A stretch of DNA of 64,000 nucleotides from an uncultured Acidobacteriota bacterium (GTDB lineage: Bacteria > Acidobacteriota > Thermoanaerobaculia > Gp7-AA8), in contig CAWGHO010000001.1 of NCBI GenBank assembly GCA_963822445.1, forward strand, positions 1,195,967-1,259,966, written 5' to 3'. Both the position numbers and the translations under genes were made by a program. Shown in pieces: positions 27,555-39,665 of this stretch (within the stretch, counting starts at the first letter, position 1; each line of letters begins with the position of its first letter). The notes beneath the pieces are model-generated. The model saw only the letters and a list, made by a program, of their open reading frames with translations. It was not told the origin of the DNA and made no database searches.

Positions 27555-28473
27555 GCTCGATCAACATCGCTGGCTTCTCTCCGATCGCGTCCGGACGCTC
27601 GCTTTCCGGGACGCGATCCACCAGCTGGTCAAGCCCGGCGACGTCGTAGTCGACCTGGGCAGCGGCTCGGGAATCCTCGCCTTCTTCGCGGCTGAGGCTG
27701 GTGCGGCGCGGGTTTACGCGATCGAGAAGCAGCACATCGCCGACGTGGCTTCGCTGGTCGCGCGGCACAACCGTTATCACGACCGGGTCGTCCTCCTGCA
27801 CGAGTACTCCCTGAAAACGACAGTGCCCGAGCGGGCGAATGTCCTCATCACCGAGACCCTCGGCAACTTCGGTCTCGACGAGCAGATCGCCGGACTGACC
27901 ATCGACGCGCGCGAGCGCTACCTGATGCCGGACGCGATCCTCATTCCCCAGCGCGTCGTGCTGTCCGCGGTTCCGGTCGAGCTTCTGGAGATGTTCGAGC
28001 GGCACATCGAGTGGTGGGGTGAATCGCGTTACGGCGTCGATCTCAAACCGCTGCGCACCTTCGCGTCGAACACGGTTTACGCCGCCGACGTCTCCGAGCG
28101 GGCGCATCTCGCCGCGCCGGCGACGATGGTCGACATCGATCTCCGAACGATAGAGACGTCCGATGCCGCTGGAAAGGCTGTCTTCATCGCGACCCGCGAC
28201 GGCGTGCTGCACGGATTTGCAGGCTGGTTTGCCGCCACGATCGCGCCGGGCATCGTCATCTCCAATCCCGCTCCGCACGACACGCACTGGCAGCAGGCTT
28301 TCCTGCCGGTCGAACATCCCGTCGAAATCAAACGCGGCGACCAGATCGAGCTCGAGTTGCAGACGCACGACGGGCGGGCCTGGCGGTGGCGCGGGCGCGC
28401 CGCGGAGCAGGAGTTCGATCAGACCACCTGGCTCTCCGCGCCTCCGTGCACCCTTCTCGGCGCGCGGGACTAG
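27532..28473 (+). CDS. Protein arginine N-methyltransferase (PRMT)-like class I SAM-dependent methyltransferase
   Basis: PRMT signatures: motif I VVVDLGSGSGILAFFAAEAGAARVYAIE, double-E loop VLITETLGNFGLDEQ, and a THW loop at PAPHDTHWQQAF. The N-terminus HRWLLSDRVRTLAFRDAI aligns with the eukaryotic PRMT pre-motif-I helix. The start overlaps the divergent beta-helix gene start. Confidence 0.75.
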   Translation: MTLIIRFMLDQHRWLLSDRVRTLAFRDAIHQLVKPGDVVVDLGSGSGILAFFAAEAGAARVYAIEKQHIADVASLVARHNRYHDRVVLLHEYSLKTTVPERANVLITETLGNFGLDEQIAGLTIDARERYLMPDAILIPQRVVLSAVPVELLEMFERHIEWWGESRYGVDLKPLRTFASNTVYAADVSERAHLAAPATMVDIDLRTIETSDAAGKAVFIATRDGVLHGFAGWFAATIAPGIVISNPAPHDTHWQQAFLPVEHPVEIKRGDQIELELQTHDGRAWRWRGRAAEQEFDQTTWLSAPPCTLLGARD

Positions 28474-28483
28474 AATTCGCGGC

Positions 28484-29611
28484 ATGTACAGGGCCGCACT
28501 GCTTTTCGTCCTTCTCCTTCCCACGTTTGCATTCGCCCAGGGCCGCCGCGATGGCGACTGGCGTGAGTTTCCCGCGCAGAAAGGGTGCGTCGGCGGCAGC
28601 CGCTGCGCCGACAAGCGCTTCCGCATCGCGCTCGATGACAGGCCGGTCATCGCCGTGCGATTCAGAGCGCATGATCAAATCGGCGAGACGGCCGGCGGCG
28701 TGTTGCGGGTGAAGATCGACGGCGACACGATCCGCGGCTACCTCGATATCCCCCGCGCCGGCGAGCTGTTCACGATCGACGTGGACGAGCTTCGCGGACG
28801 GCAGCTCGTGTTCGAGCCGGTCGCGAATGATGAAGTCGAGATCTCCGACATCGCGGTCATGTACAGCCGCGAGAATACGATCCGCCGCATCCCCGAGGCT
28901 CGTCGGGGCGGGCGGGGCGGCGGCGGACCGGGATGGCGCTCGTATCCGAATGCCTCCGGTTGCATCGGCGGCGACGGCTGCCGCCAGAACGGCACCCGCA
29001 TCACCATCCCTCTCGAAGAAGCCCCGGTCCTCGGCATCCGCTTTCACGCCCACGACAACGTCGGCAAACGCGCCGACGGCAAGCTGAGCGTGCGCATCGA
29101 CGACACGACCATCGGCTGGTCGATCGACGTGCAGCGCAACGGCAAGCGCCATGACGTCGAGGTGGACAACGTCCGCGGCACGCGACTGGTGATCGAGACG
29201 GCGAACGACGACGAAGTCGAAGTCAGCGACGTCGAAGTGCTTTACGGCCGCCGCGGCGGAGTGGGCAGCAATGGCCCGCGCGAGATCGAGCACGAAGGCG
29301 GATGCATCGGCGGATCGGAATGCGGCGGCCGCCGCAATCGCATTCGCGTGGCCCTGCGCGATTACCCCGTCGAATCGATCCGCTTCTACGCCCGCGACGA
29401 CGTCGGCACCAGGGCCGGCGGCGAGCTCCGCATCCGCATCGACGAGGAGATCCTCCGCGATTACCTCGACATCCCCCGCGAAGGCCGCACCTTCACCATC
29501 GACGGCAAAGGCCTGGTCGGCGAGTACCTGATCATCGAGACGACCGAGGATGACGAAGTGGTGATCCGGGACATCAAGGTGAAGTTCGGGACGGGGGAGT
29601 ACGACGATTAG
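28484..29611 (+). CDS. Secreted protein built from three ~120-aa internal repeats, function unknown
   Basis: Signal peptide MYRAALLFVLLLPTFAFA. Each repeat has the form GC(V/I)GG…C…R(I/F)…D.PV..IRF.A.D.(G/V)…G.L.(V/I)(K/R)ID…I……DI.R.G..F.ID……G..LV.E…DE(V/E)(E/V).SD(I/V)…. Confidence 0.7.
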   Translation: MYRAALLFVLLLPTFAFAQGRRDGDWREFPAQKGCVGGSRCADKRFRIALDDRPVIAVRFRAHDQIGETAGGVLRVKIDGDTIRGYLDIPRAGELFTIDVDELRGRQLVFEPVANDEVEISDIAVMYSRENTIRRIPEARRGGRGGGGPGWRSYPNASGCIGGDGCRQNGTRITIPLEEAPVLGIRFHAHDNVGKRADGKLSVRIDDTTIGWSIDVQRNGKRHDVEVDNVRGTRLVIETANDDEVEVSDVEVLYGRRGGVGSNGPREIEHEGGCIGGSECGGRRNRIRVALRDYPVESIRFYARDDVGTRAGGELRIRIDEEILRDYLDIPREGRTFTIDGKGLVGEYLIIETTEDDEVVIRDIKVKFGTGEYDD

Positions 29612-29955: not shown

Positions 29956-29962
29956 GTTAGCC
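29956..29962 (+). other. Core-site-like GTTAGCC marking the left boundary of the cassette array (an attC R' or attI-type recombination point)
   Basis: GTTAGCC is identical to the R' core of attC B and is the exact reverse complement of the R'' GGCTAAC found at the cassette ORF stops. GC content drops immediately after it. Confidence 0.4.
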
Positions 29963-29982
29963 AGACGTAAGATAAGCGACGC

Positions 29983-30603
29983 ATGAAATTGATTGCGATA
30001 CTTGAATCATGGGTCATTCCCGACGGAAGTTACCCTCCATTCGCTGTCGGAATGCCGGTAAACCTGTCTTTCGAGATGGCAGTGCGACAGATCTCTATCA
30101 ACGCCGCAGCTGAGGATTCGTTCGAATCGAATGGAGAGGGCGAGTACTCGTTTGCGGGCCGGGTTCTCGCAAAGTACAACGGTGGCGATCCGCTCGCGGT
30201 GGTCGAAGCAAGCGGGTTCCGCTTCTTCCTCGAAGGCACGCGCGCGCAGGAACTTCGCCCCGGTGAACGCGTTCAGGGACTAGGTTCTTTGGTGGTCGAC
30301 TACTACATATGGGTCGAATACGTCAACGAACGTCGTGAGGCGCCGGACCTTTTCTACAACTTGGGCGTTCGCCGTATTCGGCGCGTCCAGATTCCGGATT
30401 CTCTCGTCAGCCGTCACGCCACAGGCAAGGCGCTTCCTGCCCGAGTCGCGCCATCGGAGTTCGGCGCAATCACCGAGTTGCAGACAATGGTCGGACAGGA
30501 ATTTGACGAAGAGTTCTATCTCCTCGACCTAGAAACGACCGATCTAGCAGTGCCGCGGACTTTCTCGGGTGAGCCCCGCGAGTTCCGCCTTGAACGCAGG
30601 TGA
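29983..30603 (+). CDS. Cassette ORF of unknown function (206 aa)
   Basis: Intact ORF, GC about 50-55% against about 69% background. I found no recognisable motifs. Confidence 0.55.
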   Translation: MKLIAILESWVIPDGSYPPFAVGMPVNLSFEMAVRQISINAAAEDSFESNGEGEYSFAGRVLAKYNGGDPLAVVEASGFRFFLEGTRAQELRPGERVQGLGSLVVDYYIWVEYVNERREAPDLFYNLGVRRIRRVQIPDSLVSRHATGKALPARVAPSEFGAITELQTMVGQEFDEEFYLLDLETTDLAVPRTFSGEPREFRLERR

Positions 30604-30658
30604 TCACGGATGAGCGTACTTGTGCGAAAATGCGTAATGCCAGCTGAGGTTCACACTG

Positions 30659-31036
30659 TTGGATTCCGCCGAGATTGAACGAGCTGTTTGGGTTGCGACA
30701 GGCGTCGCGGCAATCACCGCGGCTCTGCTCACAGTCGTTGTGTATTACCTTCAACAACTTACCGTCGCCACCACCGGCATGCGCGTGCTTGGCAGCGTTG
30801 CCGCTTTGCTTCTGTCGTTCGGCGTCTACATCTTTGCGGCAGTCGTATTTTCTATCGTCATAAACGCACAGTTGCGGCAGACGAGTTCCGAGGGAGCGTT
30901 GAGCGTGCCTTGGTCAACTGTCTTCATTCACCCAGGGCCCTTGCACAAACTGGCACCCCTCTTCGCAATAGCTGCAACTTGGGCAACTCTTGCTTTCGTC
31001 GCTAGGCGACACCGTTCGCGAGAAATCGCTGGCTAA
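30659..31036 (+). CDS. Cassette ORF, small membrane protein (125 aa, 2-3 TM helices)
   Basis: Hydrophobic helices AVWVATGVAAITAALLTVVVYYL and LGSVAALLLSFGVYIFAAVVFSIV. The stop TAA is embedded in the attC inverse core GGCTAAC. Confidence 0.55.
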   Translation: MDSAEIERAVWVATGVAAITAALLTVVVYYLQQLTVATTGMRVLGSVAALLLSFGVYIFAAVVFSIVINAQLRQTSSEGALSVPWSTVFIHPGPLHKLAPLFAIAATWATLAFVARRHRSREIAG

Positions 31037-31968
31037 CTGTTGCGTCTCAGGACGTTGTTCCGATCCAGGCGACTGATGGGTGGATTGTAAGAGAGCGCGG
31101 TATGCGCTCGGTGGTAGTTGTAGAAGTGAAGGTACGGTGCGAGCCAACGGCGCCGTTCCTCGGAGCTGTGGTACGAGAACCGATAGGCCCATTCGCGCAG
31201 CAGCGTCTGGATGAACCGCTCCGCTTTACCGTTCGTCCGTGGTGTGTACGGCCGGATGCGGACGTGAGTGAGGTTCAGGCGGCTGCAGGTATCCCGGAAG
31301 TCGCGTGAGATGAAGGCCGATCCGTTGTCGGTCATCACCCGCTCGACGATGACATTCCGCTGAGCGAACCACGCCACCGCCCGAGTCAAAAACGAGCTGG
31401 CAGTCTCGCTACGCTCATCTGCCAGGACGTCGACGTAGGAGAGTCGGGTGAAGTCATCCGTCGCGACGTACACGAACTCGAAGCCCTGCTTCTTTGAGCC
31501 AAACGATCGACGCCTGGTGATGCGGTGTCCCACTCGATTGAACCGTCCCAGGCGCTTGATGTCGATGTGCACCAGTTCCCCCGGACGCTCCTTCTCGTAC
31601 CGAATTGGCACTGTTGCCGGCTCAAGCTGACGCAACCGAGCCAGCCCTGCTGACCGGCAGATCCGCGCTGCTGTCGACGCACTCACGCCCACTGCCTGCG
31701 CGATCTGTCGCACAGTCCGCCATTCGCGGCGAAGACTCAGAACACGCTGTCGTTTTATGTCGCTCGTGGCCCGGCCCCTGTGCGGTCTGGAGCTCCGATC
31801 GTTAAGCGGCTCGACCCTCAGACCACGACGGATCCACTCCCGCCCTCGCCGGTCACTCATACCGGCGGCCTCCGACGCCTCGCGCACCGACCATCCTTGT
31901 TCGCAGACTCGCTTGACCAGCAGTGCTCGACTCAACGGGCAGCTTCGCGCATTCTTGTGCACGTCCAT
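31033..31968 (-). CDS. IS481-family DDE transposase (integrase-core type)
   Basis: 311-aa ORF with an N-terminal helix-turn-helix and an rve integrase core (…HIDIKRL…VYVATDDFTRLSYV…TDNGSAF…). Its TAG stop lies in the duplicated target (plus-strand cta at 31033-35), as is typical for IS481. Confidence 0.85.
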   Translation of the reverse strand: MDVHKNARSCPLSRALLVKRVCEQGWSVREASEAAGMSDRRGREWIRRGLRVEPLNDRSSRPHRGRATSDIKRQRVLSLRREWRTVRQIAQAVGVSASTAARICRSAGLARLRQLEPATVPIRYEKERPGELVHIDIKRLGRFNRVGHRITRRRSFGSKKQGFEFVYVATDDFTRLSYVDVLADERSETASSFLTRAVAWFAQRNVIVERVMTDNGSAFISRDFRDTCSRLNLTHVRIRPYTPRTNGKAERFIQTLLREWAYRFSYHSSEERRRWLAPYLHFYNYHRAHTALSYNPPISRLDRNNVLRRNS

Positions 31969-32071
31969 CTGGGTTCCTTCCTGTCAACCTGTTCGTTTGA
32001 GAGCTTTCAGATTGACGAAAGTCGCCCGGATGGACAACCCGCTTCAAGGAACAACGTCCTGACACATCACA
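31038..32071 (-). mobile_element. IS481-family insertion sequence (1034 bp) with 25-bp imperfect terminal inverted repeats and a 6-bp target-site duplication GCTAAC
   Basis: Left end TGTTGCGTCTCAGGACGTTGTTCC; reverse complement of the right end TGTGATGTGTCAGGACGTTGTTCC. Flanking direct repeats GCTAAC at 31032-37 and 32072-77. It is inserted exactly in the attC R'' core. Confidence 0.8.
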
Positions 32072-32129
32072 GCTAACTACTGCCAGGAGCTGTCGGCGGG
32101 CCGTTCGCCGCGCCCGGCGGCCGAGCCGC
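32072..32129 (+). other. attC A, left (R''-L'') portion, between the two IS insertions
   Basis: GCTAAC-TACTGCCAGGAGCTGTCGGCGGGCCG…GCGGCCGAGCCGC. Together with 31031-31037 it reconstitutes GGCTAACTACTGCCAGGAGCTG, homologous to the left ends of attC B and C. Confidence 0.6.
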
Positions 32130-33456
32130 ATTCGCATTAAGTTAAGAGCCGGCGTACCCTAAGTGTATGAATCGACGGGTGGATGAGCGGGAGTGGATTC
32201 AGTATCAATGGGACTATCTGGTGGCGCTGCTGGGTGGCAAGCGGCGCATTGAGCGGCTGGCGTATGAGACCGGTGCATTTACGCGACGGCGGAAGGTCGA
32301 TAGTCCAAGTGATCTGCTGCGTCTGATCTTCACGTGGGCGGTTGCCGAACGGTCGTTGCAAGAGACTGCGGCCTTGGCTGCCGAGTCGGAACTGGCGGAT
32401 CTGAGCGCGCCCGCTCTGCTGGGCCGATTCTCACAGGCCGAGGCGTGGCTCGGGGCAGTTCTGGGTGATCTGCTCGCTGCGCGGAGCGCGGTCACCTACC
32501 GGGTACCGACGTCCGGTTAATCGATGCCACCTCAATCAGTTGCCGTGGCAGCAACAACACCGAGCGCCGGGTCCATCTCGCGCTGGATCTACGTACGAAC
32601 CGCACCACAGCGGTCGACCTCTCTGACCGGCACGGAGGCGAGACGCTGGAGCGCTTTGTCTTTCGTCCAGGGGAGATCGTGATTGCCGATCGCGGATATG
32701 CGAAGCGTAAGGACGTTGCGCACGTGTCGCGAAGCGGTGCATGGTTTGTGATCCGGATCGGCTGGACCAACCTGCCGCTCGAGCATCTGGACGGGGAACC
32801 TTTCGACCTGATTGGAACGCTTGGCGGCCTCCCTGAGGCGGCGGCTGCAGAGTTTTCCGTTCAGATTCGTACGGCGAAGGATGCGTTGGTGCCGTGCCCT
32901 GGTGGCTGTACGGAAGAGCGAACCAGCCGCCGAGCGCGCACGGCAGCAGATCCTCGCCGACGCCCGACGGCACGGCAATCCGCAGGTCGACCTGCGCACA
33001 CTCGAAGCCGCGGGGTGCATATTCGTCATCACCAATTTGCCCAACGAGATCTCGCCGAGAGCGTGCTGGAGCTCTATCGCCTACGGTGGCAGATCGAGAT
33101 CAAGTTCAAGACCCTCAAGTCCGTACTTCACCTCGGAAACCCGCCGACCCGAAGCGGCGAGCTGCTGAACGTTTATCTCATGGCGAAGCTGATCGTTGCG
33201 CTGCTGATCGAGGAGTTCATCTATCAGGCCGAGTCTATTTCCCCCTGGGGATACCCGCTCGAGGCCAATACAACCGTGGCGGCTGACGCGACTCCTGCTT
33301 GAAGCTGTGATCGCCGCAATCCGGCCAGTGCTGTCGCTGCGACTCCGCTGGAGTCGGCCCCTTCGCTGTTCCCGTCATCTTGCCCAAGCGAATAGAAGTC
33401 GACCAAACCAGCGCACGTCGGCACGCTACGTTACTGGAGACATAAGTTAATGCGAA
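32130..33456 (+). mobile_element. IS4-family insertion sequence (1327 bp) with 17-bp imperfect terminal inverted repeats and a 13-bp target-site duplication
   Basis: Left inverted repeat ATTCGCATTAAGTTAAG; reverse complement of the right end ATTCGCATTAACTTATG. Direct repeats GCGGCCGAGCCGC at 32117-32129 and 33457-33469. Confidence 0.75.
32167..33302 (+). pseudogene. IS4-family DDE transposase, one frameshift near 32470-32517
   Basis: N-terminal piece 32167..32520. Continuation LIDATSISCRG…IVIADRGYAKR…YRLRWQIEIKFKTLKSVLHL (DDE_Tnp_1 signature) runs in another frame from about 32517 to 33302. Confidence 0.7.
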
Positions 33457-33579
33457 TGCGGCCGAGCCGCCTACCACGTCCCGCGATGCACGGCGTCACG
33501 CCGCTTGCAACCGCGTCAACGTCAAATGCGGCAAGCGGCGTGCCGCGACTGCTCGCTCGCACGTGGGGCCTCGCCGCAG
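33457..33579 (+). other. attC A, right (L'-R') portion, ending in the core GTTCGTC
   Basis: …ACGGCGTCACGCCGCTTGCAACCGC…CCGCAGCTCAGGCGATAGAC-GTTCGTC is homologous along its length to attC B (…ACGGCGTCACGGCGGTTGCAGG…GCGCAGCTCAGGCGATAGAC-GTTAGCC). Confidence 0.6.
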
Positions 33580-34011
33580 CTCAGGCGATAGACGTTCGTC
33601 GAGAAGCACCCTTTCCATGAACGCTTCGTATCTCGCACGTTGAACGCGTGCGTGGCGCGGCGCCGCGCCCAGGCGACGCGGACGCACGACTTCCAACCGC
33701 GCACAATTCGCTCGATGAAATAGACGGAGGTTTGCGAATCGGTTCGGGCAACATGGCAAAGCGCCAAGCGCCCCATCGGTGGCATCTTCAATCTAGCGCA
33801 TCTCACGCGATCACCCTACTGTCCGCATGCCATTCAAACCGCGCAATAGACGGCGACCTCTATCGTTGCGGTGGTCGCTAAGCCAGTGCGTCTATTGGTT
33901 ATTCGGTCGACGAACACAAAAAGCTTAAGGTGGCTTTATGGGAGCCCGACCGCGCCTGACTCACGCCGCAGGCCGAGTGTCGGACGATCACATGCTATTC
34001 TTGATCTGCCG

Positions 34012-34545
34012 ATGCAGAGCTCGAGAGGCATAGTTGTACGTGCAGCGACTTGGGTGGTCGCGGCCTTCCTTGCTTCGGGGTTCCAATTTTCAACCTCCGC
34101 GCAGGAATCGCAGCGTCTCACGGCAAGCGATGCATTCGCCATGTACTCATCGATGCTTGCCGAGATTTCACACGCGTCGCTCGACGACTTTAAAACTGTC
34201 ATCGGCTTGCTTGAACGAGACGGCTTCCGAAAGGCGTCCGACAACTCCTGGCGTTTCCGAAACGAAAGCGGCAGCGTCGTCGTCGCCGCGTACCCAGAGC
34301 AGGGATCGTACTTTGTCTCGCTTGCGCCCAAGAATACAGGTCCGTTCGGCGATGCTGCTCTGGCCGCCCTGATAGCCAAGGCGGAGGCAGTCATGCTCGA
34401 CAGCGGCGGACAATCCATCGAGATATTGCTTCGCCGATCGAACCAGCAACGTCTTGGGAAGACCGTCGAGGTCAGCGAGTACATCTACGTCGCCCTGAAT
34501 GGTGCCATCTGGTGGCGAACGTCACGCGCAATCGTATGGCGCTAA
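34012..34545 (+). CDS. Cassette ORF: secreted or periplasmic protein of unknown function (~177 aa)
   Basis: Start chosen at MQSSRGIVVRAATWVVAAFLASGFQFSTSAQ (signal-peptide-like); the tool's ORF begins at a GTG at 33871. Stop TAA at 34543-45, just before the attC. Confidence 0.5.
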   Translation: MQSSRGIVVRAATWVVAAFLASGFQFSTSAQESQRLTASDAFAMYSSMLAEISHASLDDFKTVIGLLERDGFRKASDNSWRFRNESGSVVVAAYPEQGSYFVSLAPKNTGPFGDAALAALIAKAEAVMLDSGGQSIEILLRRSNQQRLGKTVEVSEYIYVALNGAIWWRTSRAIVWR

Positions 34546-34550
34546 ACGCG

Positions 34551-34748
34551 GCATAACTACTGCCAGGAGCTGTCGCGGCCCGGCTTCGGTCCGCCGGCCG
34601 AGCCGGCTGCTTTTTCGCCAGAGGGACGGCGTCACGGCGGTTGCAGGTCGCCACTCGCTGCATCGCAGTTCATTGGCGGCAACCGCCGCGCCGCTCCGGC
34701 TTCGGCGCGCGGGCCCTGGCCGCGCAGCTCAGGCGATAGACGTTAGCC
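34551..34748 (+). other. attC B (~200 bp): R'' GCATAAC … R' GTTAGCC
   Basis: The reverse complement of the left end, CAGCTCCTGGCAGTAGTTATGC, pairs with the right end CAGCTCAGGCGATAGACGTTAGCC with extrahelical bulges, an attC-like imperfect palindrome. Confidence 0.6.
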
Positions 34749-34847
34749 TGACACCGAGAGAGAGCGCCAGAACTCATACTTTCGAGCGCCGCATCCCGAT
34801 GACGTACTCGTGACGTAAGTCTCGGCACTCGTGTAAGATCGTTCGCA

Positions 34848-35072
34848 ATGCCACAAGCCTTCGACACCTCGCCGCGCGCAGCAGCCGTACACGCCCAGCT
34901 CTATCGTGACATCGGCCCAGCGAAGCGAGCTGAAATCATGGCGGAGCTCAGCGACGCGCTACGAGATCTCGCTGCGGCCGGCGTCCGGCGACGACATCCT
35001 GAGTACGATGACGAGCGTGTTCGAAAAGAAGTCCTCGCGGTCTTCTATGGCCGCGGTCGAACGTCGCTGTGA
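34848..35072 (+). CDS. Small cassette protein (74 aa), putative antitoxin partner of the downstream nucleotidyltransferase
   Basis: 4-bp ATGA overlap with the next ORF. The size and position match MenA-type antitoxins placed upstream of MenT-type toxins. Confidence 0.45.
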   Translation: MPQAFDTSPRAAAVHAQLYRDIGPAKRAEIMAELSDALRDLAAAGVRRRHPEYDDERVRKEVLAVFYGRGRTSL

Positions 35073-35626
35073 GCCTCCGAGACGCTTTTCGAAACATGCG
35101 AGATGCTCTTGAGGAGCTTGGAATACCGTACATGGTGACGGGTTCCGTCGCGAGCTCCGTGCACGGTGTTCCGCGAGCTACTCAAGACATCGATGTGATC
35201 ATCGAGCCGACACGTGACCAGCTAGTTGCGCTCTTAAACAGGTTTTCCGAACCAATCTACGACGCCGATCGCGACGACGCTTTGGATGCTCTCAATCGAC
35301 GATCAATGTTCAGCGTGATCGATCGCAGAGGCATATGGAAGATCGACTTCATCGTTCGCAAGCAGCGTCCGTTCAGTAAGAAAGAATTTGACCGACGGGT
35401 GAGAATCGATATTCTCGATGTTTTAGTGTATTCGGCGACACCGGAAGATGTACTCCTTGCAAAGCTCGAGTGGGCGAAATTGGGTGAATCCGAACGCCAG
35501 ATCCGTGATGCTGCAGGCATCATCGAAATTCAGGGCGAGAAGCTTGACCGTGAGTATGTGGAGCGGTGGGCCGCAGCCCTGGATATTGAGGATCAATTGC
35601 ACGCAGCACGAGCAAAGGCAGGCTAA
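35069..35626 (+). CDS. Pol-beta superfamily nucleotidyltransferase (185 aa), MenT/AbiEii-like putative toxin
   Basis: GSVASSVHGVPRATQDIDVII fits the hG[GS]x9-13DhD NTase motif, followed by KIDFIV (third acidic residue). The stop TAA lies inside the attC core GGCTAAC. Confidence 0.55.
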   Translation: MSLRDAFRNMRDALEELGIPYMVTGSVASSVHGVPRATQDIDVIIEPTRDQLVALLNRFSEPIYDADRDDALDALNRRSMFSVIDRRGIWKIDFIVRKQRPFSKKEFDRRVRIDILDVLVYSATPEDVLLAKLEWAKLGESERQIRDAAGIIEIQGEKLDREYVERWAAALDIEDQLHAARAKAG

Positions 35627-35794
35627 CTACTGCCCGAGGCTGTCGGAGAGCCGTCTGCCGCGCCCGGCGCTGAAGCGCCTCGTGAAGCGTTGCTTGCCCG
35701 CGGAAGGCCGGCCATCCCTACGCGCCACGGCGCCGAGGAGCGCGCCACGCAAACCCTACCCACGCGGAACCTCGCCGCATCTCACGCGTTAGAC
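35621..35794 (+). other. attC C (~170 bp): R'' GGCTAAC … R' GTTAGAC; last attC of the array
   Basis: GGCTAACTACTGCCCGAGGCTGTCGG … CGCCGCATCTCACGCGTTAGAC. More diverged than A and B, but the same architecture. Confidence 0.5.
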
Positions 35795-35853: not shown

Positions 35854-37020
35854 ATGACGTACCGCGTTCTTATATTCACCTTGCTCGCGCTCTGCGTGAG
35901 CGCAACCGCCGCGTCGCAGCCGGTCGTCGTCGGGCAAAGCCACCGCCTTCGTTCATCGGTCCTGAACGAAGACCGCACTTACCGCGTTCATCTTCCGGCG
36001 AGCTATGGATGGGCGAAGGATCGGCGATATCCGGTTCTGTACGTGCTCGATGGCGCGACGCATTTTCTGCACACGTCCGGGTCCGCCGGCTATCTCGCGG
36101 CGCAGGGCGAGATCCCGGAAATGATCGTGGTTGCGCTCGACAGCACCGTCCGGATCAGAGACTTCACCCAGTCGGACTGGTCGAGCGCATGGGTTGGAGG
36201 AGGGGGCGCGGCGAACTTCAAGCGCTTCCTTTCCACCGAGCTCATTCCGAACATCGAGCGCGCTTATCGCACCAACGGGTTCCGCGTGCTGGCCGGCCAC
36301 TCCGCCGGTGGACAGTTCGTCCTGTACTGCCTCACCTCCGAGCCGTCTCTCTTTCAGGCCTACATGGCGTTCAGCCCGAGTCTCGACTGGGACGACAACC
36401 TGCCCCAGAAATCGCTGGCCAAATCGTTCGACTCGACGCGCTCGCTGAAGGCGTTTCTGTACGTCGCGCGATCGGATGATTCCGGCCGCGCATTGGAGGA
36501 TTACGACCGGCTGGTGGAAACCCTGAAAACGAAATCGCCGCAGGGATTCCGCTGGCACAGCCAGCCCTATCCTGACGAAACCCACGGCAGCATTCCTTTG
36601 CTCGCACAGATCGATGCCCTTCGCCGACTGTACTCCGGTTACCGGTTTCACGGAGACCTGGTGTCGAAGGGCCTCGACTTCGCGGAGAAGCATTTCGAAG
36701 AGGTCTCCAGGACCGTGGGATGGCCTCTGCCCGTTCCCGAAAGCGTGATCAACGATTTCGGTTACGACGCGCTGGCGGCGGGGAAAACGGAAGCTGCCAT
36801 TACTCTCTTCACGCGCAACGTTCTGGCGAATCCGAATTCCGCCAACGCCTACGACAGTCTGGCGGACGCGTATGAAAAGGCGGAGAACTGGAAAGAAGCG
36901 GCAAAAGCAGCAGAGAAAGCCGCCGCTCTGGCTATAGAGTTCGACCTTGCCAACCGGGAGTACTTCATTCAGCACGCCGCAAAAATGAAGGCCCGGCTCG
37001 AACAGGAATCGAAACCATGA
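35854..37020 (+). CDS. Secreted 'putative esterase' family alpha/beta-hydrolase (enterochelin-esterase / esterase-D-like) with a C-terminal TPR region
   Basis: Signal peptide. YPVLYVLDGATHF, and GHSAGGQFVLYCL (a GxSxG nucleophile elbow). Confidence 0.75.
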   Translation: MTYRVLIFTLLALCVSATAASQPVVVGQSHRLRSSVLNEDRTYRVHLPASYGWAKDRRYPVLYVLDGATHFLHTSGSAGYLAAQGEIPEMIVVALDSTVRIRDFTQSDWSSAWVGGGGAANFKRFLSTELIPNIERAYRTNGFRVLAGHSAGGQFVLYCLTSEPSLFQAYMAFSPSLDWDDNLPQKSLAKSFDSTRSLKAFLYVARSDDSGRALEDYDRLVETLKTKSPQGFRWHSQPYPDETHGSIPLLAQIDALRRLYSGYRFHGDLVSKGLDFAEKHFEEVSRTVGWPLPVPESVINDFGYDALAAGKTEAAITLFTRNVLANPNSANAYDSLADAYEKAENWKEAAKAAEKAAALAIEFDLANREYFIQHAAKMKARLEQESKP

Positions 37021-37391
37021 TCAACGGCTTTCACGGCGTTCGCTATCAGGTGAAGGATGTCGCCCGATCGATCGACTTCTACACCGAACATCTCGGCTTC
37101 AAACTGGAGCACAAGCAGCTTCCCGCGTTTGCCGCTCTTTCCCTCGGCGCGCTCCCGCTCCTGCTGAGCGGGCCCGGCGCTTCGGGCTCGCGTCTCGTCA
37201 ATGGCGAGCCTCAGGAGCCGGGCGGCTGGAATCGCATCGTTCTTCGCGTTGCCGATCTTTCGTCATTCATCGAGGCCCTAAGCAAGGCCGGTCTCCGGTT
37301 TCGAGGCGAAATGCAGGTTGGCCCGGGAGGAAAGCAGATTCAATTGCTCGACCCCGACGGCAATCCGATCGAGCTATTCGAGCCGGCCTAG
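37017..37391 (+). CDS. VOC/glyoxalase-bleomycin-resistance family protein
   Basis: 124 aa with a betaalphabetabetabeta module (FHGVRYQVKDVARSIDFYTEHLGF…). ATGA overlap with the esterase gene. Confidence 0.75.
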   Translation: MINGFHGVRYQVKDVARSIDFYTEHLGFKLEHKQLPAFAALSLGALPLLLSGPGASGSRLVNGEPQEPGGWNRIVLRVADLSSFIEALSKAGLRFRGEMQVGPGGKQIQLLDPDGNPIELFEPA

Positions 37392-39665
37392 GATCTCCTG
37401 ATACCTGGCCTCCCCTCGCAGCGGCTCGAACGGCGGCGAGACGCGCATGGCCGACAGCCAGTAATCGCGATTCGCATACGCCTCGTCGAGCAGCGCCGTG
37501 GCGCGGGCGCGATCGCCGAGGAGGTACCAGGTGCCCGCTCGCAAAGCGGGGGTATGGGTGATGCCGGGCGAGGTCGGGCCGAGATCCTCGAGTGTGGCGA
37601 TGGCCGCGACGCGGTCGCCGGTGCGCGCGTACGCGTAGGCGAGAAACGACTTCGAGACCGGGAAGTTCCGCGATGCCGAGTAGCGAAGACCCTCGATGGC
37701 TTTCGCGTAATCGCCCGAAGCCAGCGCGACGTAGCCGCGGATGTGCCGCGGATACAGCGCGTTCGGATCGAGCTCGATGGTCTCGTCGATCTGCTTCGTC
37801 GCTTCCTCGCGACGCCCGGCGTGCACGAGCGCGAAGGCGACGTTCGACTGGATCTGCGTCGAGAACGGATCGAGCCGCGCCGCTTCCTGCATCTGTCCGA
37901 CGCCCTCCTGCGCGCGGCCGACGTTCACGAGGTAGACGCCATACCAGTGATGGGCGACGGCGTAGTTCGGATTGAGCTCGAGCGCGCGGCGGAACGATCG
38001 CTCGGCGGACGGCAGGTCGAGGAGGCAACAGAGATTCAGGTATCCGAGGGATGTGTGGGCTTCGGCGAGGCTCTCGTCGAGCTTCAGCGCCTGCCGCGCC
38101 GCGGAGACCGCGCGATCGCACGCCTGCCGCCACGGTGCCGTGCCGAGTTGCATCTGCCCGATGTACGCATCAGCAACGCCGCTGTAGGCGCGGCCATAAG
38201 TCGGGTCGGCTTCCAGGGCCTGTTGAAAGAAGCCGTGCGCCTTCGCCAGCGACTCGGCATCGCGCTTGTTCCAGAAATAGCGGCCCTTGAGATAGAGGTC
38301 CGTCGCCGCGCGGCTCTCCGTCGGTGCAGGAGGCGGCGATGTACGTCCACCGCCTCGCAACGCGCTGGTGACATCGCCGGAGATCTGGCGCTCGATGGCG
38401 AGCACGTCGTGCTCGTACTGCCTTCCCCAGAGCCGCGTGCCGTCGGCGGCGTCCACGAGCTCCGCGTCGACGAGCAGCCGCTTCCCCGAGCGCCGCACCT
38501 GCCCGGCCACGATCGCGTCGACGCCGAGCTCCTTCGCCACCGCCGGAAGCGCTTTGTCCGTGTTCTTGTAGCGAAAGGCCGTCGTTCTCGCGATGACGCG
38601 AAGATCGGGCACGCGCGAGAGATCGTTGAGTAACGCGTCGGTCACGCCGTCGCTGAGATATTCGAGATTCGCGTCGCCGGTGACGTTCCCGAACGGAATC
38701 ACCACCAGCGATTTCACGATTCGCGTCGGTGCCCTGTCCCGAAACAGCAGCGCGACCGCGGTCGCAATCACTGCGGCGGCGATCGCCAACGCCAGAACGC
38801 GCGAGCGCTTGCGTTTCGGTTCCGCGGCCGGCTTCCCCGCCAGCACTTCGCGCAGATCGATCGCGAGATCGCGCGCGGAGTGATAACGATCGTCCGGCTT
38901 CTTCGCGAGGCAGCGGCGGACGATGCGGTCGAGAGCCTCAGGATCGAGTGGCCGAGGCTGTCCGCTGACGATGTTCGAGAGGACGTCGAAGGACGACTCC
39001 CCTTCGAACGCCCGCCGCCGCGCGATGGCTTCGTAGAGGATGCAGCCCGCCGCGAAGATGTCGCTGCGCGCGTCGGCGGTTTTGCCGCGAATCTGTTCGG
39101 GCGAGATGTAGCCGGCTGTGCCGACGACGACGCGCGACTCGGGATCGAGCGGCGTCGTCGCATCGGTCGATCCTGCAATTTGCGGGACCTGCAGCTTCGC
39201 CAGACCGAAGTCGAGGATCTTCGCGTAACCGTCCGCGGTGACCATCACGTTGTCCGGCTTCAGATCGCGATGCACGATCCCCGCGGCGTGCGCCTTGGCC
39301 AGCCCCTCGACGACCTGCACGCAATAGCCGAGCAATTCGTCGCGCGATACTTCGGGATCGTTGATCAGGTCGCGCAGGCTGCGCCCTTCGATCAGTTCCG
39401 AGACCATGTAACTCCGCCCGTCGGCCTCGCCGAAGCCGTGCACGGTGAGGATGTTCGGATGATTCAGCGCCGACGCCGCCTCGGCCTCCCGCCGGAACCG
39501 CGCCACGGCGTCCGCGTCGTTCGCCAGATATGTCGCGAGCACTTTCACGGCGACGTCGCGGCGCAGCTTCAGGTCGCGGGCGCGATAGACCTCGCCCATT
39601 CCTCCCGCGCCGAGGAACGAGACCACTTCGTAGTCGCCGAGGCGCGTGCCGGGCTCGATGCGCAT
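37374..39665 (-). CDS. Ser/Thr protein kinase with a TM helix and an extracytoplasmic TPR-repeat domain
   Basis: Hanks kinase motifs GAGGMGEVYRA, VAVKVL, HRDLKPDNVMV, DFGLAKL. TM helix VLALAIAAAVIATAVALLF. C-terminal TPR repeats. Confidence 0.85.
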   Translation of the reverse strand: MRIEPGTRLGDYEVVSFLGAGGMGEVYRARDLKLRRDVAVKVLATYLANDADAVARFRREAEAASALNHPNILTVHGFGEADGRSYMVSELIEGRSLRDLINDPEVSRDELLGYCVQVVEGLAKAHAAGIVHRDLKPDNVMVTADGYAKILDFGLAKLQVPQIAGSTDATTPLDPESRVVVGTAGYISPEQIRGKTADARSDIFAAGCILYEAIARRRAFEGESSFDVLSNIVSGQPRPLDPEALDRIVRRCLAKKPDDRYHSARDLAIDLREVLAGKPAAEPKRKRSRVLALAIAAAVIATAVALLFRDRAPTRIVKSLVVIPFGNVTGDANLEYLSDGVTDALLNDLSRVPDLRVIARTTAFRYKNTDKALPAVAKELGVDAIVAGQVRRSGKRLLVDAELVDAADGTRLWGRQYEHDVLAIERQISGDVTSALRGGGRTSPPPAPTESRAATDLYLKGRYFWNKRDAESLAKAHGFFQQALEADPTYGRAYSGVADAYIGQMQLGTAPWRQACDRAVSAARQALKLDESLAEAHTSLGYLNLCCLLDLPSAERSFRRALELNPNYAVAHHWYGVYLVNVGRAQEGVGQMQEAARLDPFSTQIQSNVAFALVHAGRREEATKQIDETIELDPNALYPRHIRGYVALASGDYAKAIEGLRYSASRNFPVSKSFLAYAYARTGDRVAAIATLEDLGPTSPGITHTPALRAGTWYLLGDRARATALLDEAYANRDYWLSAMRVSPPFEPLRGEARYQEILGRLE

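Follow-up and report, generated by a model that had tools for sequence, protein, structure and literature searches.

A candidate MenAT1-type toxin-antitoxin pair on an integron gene cassette of a probable Acidobacteriota genome

Two overlapping genes in a 64-kb stretch of contig CAWGHO010000001.1 from an uncultured Acidobacteriota bacterium (the whole stretch is called the window below) encode a small protein of 74 amino acids (aa) and a nucleotidyltransferase (NTase) of 185 aa, and share one integron gene cassette. Judged from sequence and predicted structure, the pair is probably a toxin-antitoxin (TA) module of the type of MenAT1 from Mycobacterium tuberculosis (MenT1 Rv0078A/MenA1 Rv0078B; PDB entries 8AN4, 8AN5 and 8RR5), of which we infer the toxicity and the target. 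Both are real, conserved genes whose products are distantly homologous to MenT1 and MenA1; the relatives keep the catalytic residues and the phospho-acceptor, and the pairing is nearly obligate. An initial annotation had proposed a MenA/MenT-like candidate module; the in silico evidence from sequence, fold, partner and context agrees with this, and narrows it to a MenAT1-like one.

Both open reading frames (ORFs) lie on the forward strand. The small one starts with ATG and covers 34848..35072; it encodes the candidate antitoxin, a MenA1-like protein of 74 aa and three helices, of which the N-terminal one is extra. The large one starts with GTG and covers 35069..35626; its 185-aa product is a Pol-beta-fold nucleotidyltransferase (Pfam DUF6036) and the MenT1-like candidate toxin. 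The initial annotation gave the same limits and a 4-nt overlap, which it read as ATGA; the overlap is instead GTGA, because the large ORF begins with GTG (35069-71) and the small one stops with the TGA at 35070-72. The GTG is the correct start of the NTase, since 25 homologues start in this column (with M, V or L) and are conserved in their 21 N-terminal residues. These residues form a confident N-terminal helix in the AlphaFold2 (AF2) model. The source annotation starts the NTase at a later internal ATG (164-aa P0004, 100% identical) and leaves the small ORF uncalled.

Both ORFs are genuine genes and not chance reading frames, and purifying selection acts on them. Homologues of the NTase number 2295 at E<=1e-3 among clusters at 90% identity, and an exhaustive HMMER search gives 7098 clusters at 50% identity, 2563 of them at E<=1e-10. 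For the small protein there are 35 close homologues, and 78 by profile search, 15 of which have a precomputed PF18993 assignment. Nucleotide differences from a related locus in another array (L086) fall on codon positions 1, 2 and 3 in the numbers 14/12/53 for the small ORF and 33/17/98 for the NTase. The closest homologues that carry a name come from metagenome-assembled genomes (MAGs) of Thermoanaerobaculia (Acidobacteriota).

The NTase carries the sequence motifs from which it had first been recognised, an hG[GS]x13DID motif and a downstream acidic KIDF motif. They are found as G25-S26, followed after 13 residues by D40-I41-D42-V-I-I, and then as K91-I92-D93-F94. The large protein thus combines a Pol-beta NTase fold, hG[GS], DxD and a third carboxylate, D93. 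For the comparison with known structures we used a profile (A3) of 115 NTase homologues with 33-88% identity. When searched against the PDB, its top sequence is MenT1 (8an4/8an5/8rr5, E 7.7e-9), followed by the fungal NTase-like protein 5uvd (2e-7) and then by TM1012 (7e-5), and antibiotic NTases are absent from the matches. The size of the profile matters, as a narrower one of 25 sequences finds MenT1 only marginally (E 0.0027), and searches of the PDB with single sequences give no significant match for the NTase or for the small protein.

The fold leads to the same relative. The AF2 model of the NTase has a mean predicted local distance difference test (pLDDT) value of 95.9 and a predicted template modelling (pTM) score of 0.90. 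In a Foldseek search of the PDB with this model the five top matches are all MenT1 chains (8an5_A: E 5.6e-8, template modelling (TM) scores 0.75/0.72), and ANT(2'')-Ia and LnuA follow below them with TM scores of 0.57-0.65. MenT1 is thus the top relative in the PDB by profile and by fold, which bears out the initial description of a small MenT/AbiEii-like NTase.

To represent the MenT1 family itself, genes were extracted from 80 loci in GTDB genomes that were found with a fragment of MenT1 (L006-L085). The alignment by hhalign of A3 with 73 MenT1-family proteins from such loci covers the full length (97.7%, E 1.6e-12, 189 columns). It pairs T38, D40, K132 and D147 of the NTase with T39, D41, K137 and D152 of MenT1. 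In MenT1 these are experimentally defined active-site residues, with T39 as the phospho-acceptor (PMC10435456, PMC11375011). Each of the four, as well as R36, K91, D93 and E126, is at least 90% conserved across the 115 sequences, and D42 is likewise conserved among the relatives of the NTase. As a side observation, the true MenT1/MenA1 pairs in the GTDB sample extend beyond Actinomycetota, to MAGs of Acidobacteriota, Thermoanaerobaculia, Myxococcota, Planctomycetota, Rokubacteria and Chloroflexi. Nearly all of these loci have an upstream ORF of 66-77 aa with a 4-nt overlap.

The small protein is a remote homologue of MenA1 with an extra N-terminal helix, as far as profile comparisons can tell. 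Among its close relatives, 13 of 15 match PF18993, the Pfam family named 'Rv0078B-related antitoxin', and the profile of the close small-protein family (A2) aligns by hhalign with PF18993-bearing proteins at 99.65% (E 5e-25), these proteins reaching PF18993 with E-values as low as 3.8e-7. The MenA1 family was sampled as 49 ORFs of 66-80 aa that lie directly upstream of MenT1 homologues. Against these, a 46-sequence profile of the small protein (A6) aligns over residues 23-70 with 96.8% and E 2.3e-10, compared with 67.7% for a narrow small-protein profile and 0.1% for the negative control. The small upstream partner expected of MenAT modules, which the initial annotation had assumed from gene order, is thus found here at the level of profile homology.

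The predicted structure of the small protein fits the same assignment. In the AF2 model (pLDDT 90.3) helices span residues 9-21, 23-49 and 55-67, and the second and third correspond to the long and the short helix of MenA1, which is described as a long helix followed by a short one (PMC10435456). The additional first helix carries a nearly invariant D6-T7. Three kinds of match were set aside: hits of the A5 profile to de novo TIM barrels in the PDB reflect a short, repeated, low-complexity match, and the sub-threshold Pfam matches to DUF1804 and HAAS were judged to be noise from helical composition, because both profile-profile alignments and the pairing of the genes speak for the link to PF18993.

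Linkage of the two genes is almost complete. Of 68 metagenome loci whose upstream DNA is long enough (NTase 47-85% identical), 67 encode a homologue of the small protein directly upstream, on the same strand; in the sole exception the NTase is truncated. Pairs are found in cassettes, outside cassettes and in unrelated chromosomal contexts, and genes of the DUF6036 type are preceded by small proteins flagged as PF18993. In plasmid records the relatives are labelled 'hypothetical protein'.

The resemblance to MenAT1 extends from gene order to residues. In both systems the NTase gene overlaps by 4 nt with a small gene immediately before it, an arrangement that is also typical of most MenT1-family loci, and the NTase has about 190 aa. 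They share the DxD, the phospho-acceptor Thr, the catalytic Lys and the second Asp, with a spacing of 15 residues from Lys to Asp, and the antitoxin core consists of a long helix, an RRxxP[ED] turn and a short helix. However, the NTase of the window belongs to DUF6036 and not to AbiEii/DUF1814, is only 14-21% identical to MenT1, and its family has a conserved RKxRPFS...RR block. Unlike MenA1, the 74-aa protein has the extra D6-T7 helix and lacks the tail RPGAxxGDxxGRPSxRF. The DUF6036 family also differs in often being a single-chain fusion, and the copy in the window in being borne on a cassette in a probable Acidobacteriota genome.

The gene pair sits in a true, mobile integron cassette. Delimited by the R' sites, this unit of 1046 bp (34743..35788, forward strand) contains both genes and its own attC. 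The preceding cassette ends in attC#2 (34550..34748, forward strand), a long imperfect hairpin with R'' GGCATAAC at 34550-57 and R' GTTAGCC at 34742-48, and the cassette of the pair ends in attC#3 (35621..35794, forward strand), with R'' GGCTAAC at 35621-35627, R' GTTAGAC at 35788-35794 and a degenerate centre. The left edge is therefore G34742|TTAGCC, in the R' of the preceding attC, and the right edge is G35788 of GTTAGAC. When circularised, the cassette would read GTTAGCC at its junction, the exact complement of its own R'' GGCTAAC, inside which the TAA stop of the NTase is located. In total, three attC-type repeats start with GGCTAAC/GGCATAAC and TACTGCC, at 31031 (duplicated at 32072), 34550 and 35621, and are closed by G|TT cores at 33594, 34742 and 35788. 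The cassette-borne nature of the pair, a premise of the initial annotation, is confirmed by these R''/R' cores on both sides and by the same cassette in other arrays.

The three attC sites differ in how well they fold. The bottom strand of attC#2 has a z-score of -4.28, with none of 200 shuffled sequences as stable, and attC#1, reconstructed without its insertion sequences (IS), forms a long hairpin (z -3.53). The ends of attC#3 align with the other two attC sites of the array, but its bottom strand folds no better than shuffled sequences (z +0.7), and the self-complementary centre is lost. Since attC#3 has lost its centre and no further attC of the array follows it, this copy of the cassette may no longer be able to move. 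Elsewhere the same cassette is found between intact attC sites, in L088 (93% nucleotide identity, with a site of the attC#2 type) and in L086 (71%), and thus it is a mobile unit. The L086 array contains at least six attC sites, and neighbouring cassettes there encode BrnT/BrnA, Unstab_antitox, Gp49/HTH_3 and DUF3800. Altogether, in 14 of 89 loci (L088, L086 and 12 further ones) the pair has attC sites of this type on its flanks.

An integrase gene was not found in the window: a tblastn search of the 64 kb with an IntI1 query returned only noise, and none of the neighbouring ORFs has a Pfam match to a recombinase. The array is thus an attC cluster without an integrase within the window. The GC content of the window is 0.53-0.60 across 29.5-37 kb, compared with 0.64-0.69 outside.

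The cassette may also bring its own promoter. A conserved box, TCGTGTAAGATC (34829..34840, forward strand), contains a -10-like TAAGAT at 34834-34839, 8 nt before the ATG of the small ORF, and is a candidate promoter. In the form TCGTGTAA[G/A/C]ATC it stands at this constant distance of 8 nt from the ATG in the window and in L088, L086, L001 and L087. Because the box is kept at five loci whose remaining upstream DNA is unrelated, it suggests a private promoter that would give a leaderless or near-leaderless mRNA. Neither the box nor any other promoter before the small ORF was called by a scan for consensus sigma-70 promoters; the 105-nt leader has no operator-like repeats. Just upstream of the cassette, a terminator-like GC stem followed by a T-run lies inside attC#2 (34593-34609), which would insulate the cassette from read-through transcription.

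We suggest that the module works as follows. The 74-aa protein would be made first, from a transcript common to both genes. The NTase toxin would act on the 3' ends of tRNAs, and the 74-aa protein would most likely neutralise it by laying its long central helix across the face of the active site; it may in addition induce the self-phosphorylation of Thr38, the residue corresponding to Thr39 of MenT1. On a cassette array such a module would be an addiction element that resists the loss of cassettes, or an abortive-infection defence.

Several results weigh against a MenAT1-type module. First, the formal family assignments fall short. The NTase stays below the Pfam cut-off of AbiEii/DUF1814 (PF08843; 14.1 bits and E 0.044, against 22.5 bits), which a MenT1-family protein passes with 53.5 bits; it therefore represents a sister family and is no formal DUF1814 member. 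Likewise, the small protein is sub-threshold for PF18993 (14.5 bits against 27.1), its profiles give no direct match to the MenA1 chain in the PDB, and a Foldseek search with the 74-aa model returns nothing significant. In that search MenA1 (8an5_C) has the best target-normalised TM score (0.74, with a root-mean-square deviation of 1.9 A over 44 columns), yet it ranks 11th with E 5.1. NCBIfam offers nothing useful for the pair, and PADLOC has no match. The initial annotation had seen no obvious named family, which has to be revised for the NTase, as it passes DUF6036 ('nucleotidyltransferase of unknown function', 24.8 bits with a cut-off of 23.6); for the partner there is a named relative, the Rv0078B/MenA1 family PF18993, at the sub-threshold level just given.

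Second, the family has features that MenAT1 does not explain. The NTases share a conserved basic block, R97-K98-x-R100-P-F-S...R109-R110, which has no counterpart in MenT1, and thus the substrate could differ from that of MenT1. In 19 of the 150 best cluster representatives (13%) both parts are fused in one polypeptide; one of the fused proteins, P0162, bears both Pfam signals, and fusions are also present in two finished plasmids, as Haur_5016 of Herpetosiphon aurantiacus and FD725_RS30230 of Nostoc. Fusion in one chain at this frequency is at odds with a classical labile antitoxin. Further, on plasmid p1 of Planktothrix agardhii (L170, 383-2043) an NTase homologue keeps its DxD intact (STQDLDLVI), begins with an unrelated N-terminus and contains nothing MenA1-like, which suggests that the enzyme is tolerated there without a partner. 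The gene of an IS701-like transposase ends 45 nt upstream of it. Finally, MenT2, which belongs to the same superfamily, had no detectable toxicity (PMC10435456).

We also observed that some of the fusions have lost the first catalytic Asp, with PRATLGIDL in Haur_5016 (L171, 1240-2088, plasmid pHAU01) and PRATNHVDF in P0232. Most fusions retain it.

Among the alternatives, it is possible, if somewhat unlikely, that MenAT1-like biochemistry serves abortive infection (Abi) against phages here, as in AbiE, and not the stabilisation of cassettes; this is compatible with a MenAT1-type module. Integron cassettes are reservoirs of defence genes, and the fused forms are reminiscent of single-chain sensor toxins. 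Moreover, it was an Abi system that first defined the MenT/AbiEii superfamily (PMC10435456). On the other hand, PADLOC gives no support, and no phage or defence-island genes lie near the pair in the window. That relatives of the pair are not found in viral contigs or in PHROGs is neutral evidence, and what has been assembled so far does not separate defence from addiction.

A regulated, non-toxic NTase that modifies an RNA or a small molecule is an unlikely explanation. The small protein would then be a permanent regulatory or substrate-adaptor subunit, and there would be no addiction module. The fusions, both those in the family clusters and those on the two plasmids, would be natural for such an enzyme, as would obligate pairing, which is common to enzyme subunits; the tolerated partner-less copy of Planktothrix with its intact DxD and the basic residues absent in MenT1 point in the same direction. 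Against this, the homologues of the two parts include a toxin and an antitoxin proven by experiment, and the pair forms a self-contained mobile cassette among other TA cassettes. Nor are fusions decisive, since fused toxin-antitoxin proteins such as CapRel are known.

It can also be speculated, with considerable doubt, that DUF6036 NTases and their extended MenA1-like partners form a very large family of self-inhibited NTase switches whose control differs from that of MenAT1. By analogy with fused systems of the CapRel type, the extra helix with its Asp-Thr and the fusions could mean an intramolecular lid that is released by a trigger, for example a phage protein. The RNA target of the DUF6036 NTases might also differ from the CCA end of tRNA.

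That the gene is an antibiotic-modifying NTase cassette, like the classic integron cassettes aadB/ANT(2'')-Ia or the lnu lincosamide NTases, is highly improbable, for apart from its cassette and the structural matches to ANT(2'')-Ia and LnuA, which at a TM score of about 0.6 are clearly weaker than MenT1, it has no ANT or Lnu sequence signal in Pfam, NCBIfam or the PDB, MenT1 is clearly better by sequence as well as by fold, and resistance NTases need no partner like the 74-aa protein that is conserved throughout the metagenome loci. An aminoglycoside-NTase-like model, named at the outset as the result that would speak against a toxin, was thus not what the structure prediction gave. A HEPN-MNT pair (HepT/MntA, type VII TA) was rejected as well, as the 74-aa partner, with its three helices, has neither a HEPN match nor an Rx4-6H motif.

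Other known systems were compared with the pair as well. The AbiEi/AbiEii, MenAT3 and MenAT4 systems (COG5340 and DUF1814) are alike in having a Pol-beta NTase toxin with motifs I and II and a Ser or Thr at the phosphorylation position. In contrast, their antitoxins are winged-helix proteins of about 22 kDa, unrelated to the 74-aa protein, and their toxins are larger. TM1012 (PDB 2EWR/2FCL/4HX0) and 5UVD are sequence relatives with a minimal NTase fold, but they have no known function and no described partner, and as given above they match more weakly than MenT1. With the TA cassettes of chromosomal integrons, for example the Vibrio superintegron, the pair has in common that it is a two-gene unit with its own attC and probably its own promoter within an attC array. 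However, the toxins there are RelE, ParE, HigB, Phd-Doc and others, and here the toxin would be an NTase; unlike those arrays, the present one is short and interrupted by two IS elements, and no integrase was found for it in the window.

The two IS elements both lie in attC#1. One, of the IS481 family (31038-32071), is inserted exactly in the R'' core of this attC; its transposase is encoded at 31033..31968 on the reverse strand (Pfam matches LZ_Tnp_IS481 and rve), the terminal inverted repeats are TGTTGCGTCTCAGGACGTTGTTCC / GGAACAACGTCCTGACACATCACA, and the 6-bp target duplication is GCTAAC (31032-37 and 32072-77). The other is IS4-like (32130-33457) and contains a DDE_Tnp_1 fragment at 32679..33302. 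Its inverted ends of 15 nt are ATTCGCATTAAGTTA / TAAGTTAATGCGAAT, and 13 bp, GCGGCCGAGCCGC, are directly duplicated at 32117-29 and 33458-70. The reading frame of the transposase appears to be fragmented.

The remaining cassettes in the array (29958-31030 and 33595-34741) encode proteins without a Pfam family. Their ORFs are at 29983..30603 (206 aa), at about 30611-31030 (a probable membrane protein) and at 33871..34545 (listed with 224 aa, the true start being maybe later). The array may begin with the GTTAGCC at 29957-63 as its first recombination site. To the left of the low-GC cassette region, a 482-aa ORF (28163-29611) has internal direct repeats 342 nt apart (D1, D5 and D6, with about 70-80% identity), and neither this ORF nor an overlapping 439-aa ORF on the reverse strand has a Pfam match. 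The low-GC stretch extends downstream beyond the last attC and there includes a gene for a TPR-tailed esterase (35854..37020, PF00756), followed by a small overlapping ORF from about 37018 (region to 37392) that looks glyoxalase/VOC-like from its sequence. No attC was recognised after these two genes. Next downstream is a gene for a Ser/Thr kinase with TPR (37374..39665, reverse strand).

The kind of system described here is already known, from the work on MenAT1 between 2020 and 2024, and thus the advance is incremental. What is new is the sister family of NTases with an extended antitoxin, often fused, and in this case borne on a cassette; the literature that was searched contains no paper on DUF6036. 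The MenAT1 mechanism consists of a tRNA-blocking NTase that is checked by a tiny helical antitoxin inducing self-phosphorylation. If the pair is of the MenAT1 type, this mechanism, defined so far on a few examples from actinobacteria, would be found to reach into a far larger sister family whose only name is DUF6036, and an NTase-class toxin would join the TA modules known from environmental integrons. The natural fusions are ready-made constructs for studying how a small domain controls the enzyme.

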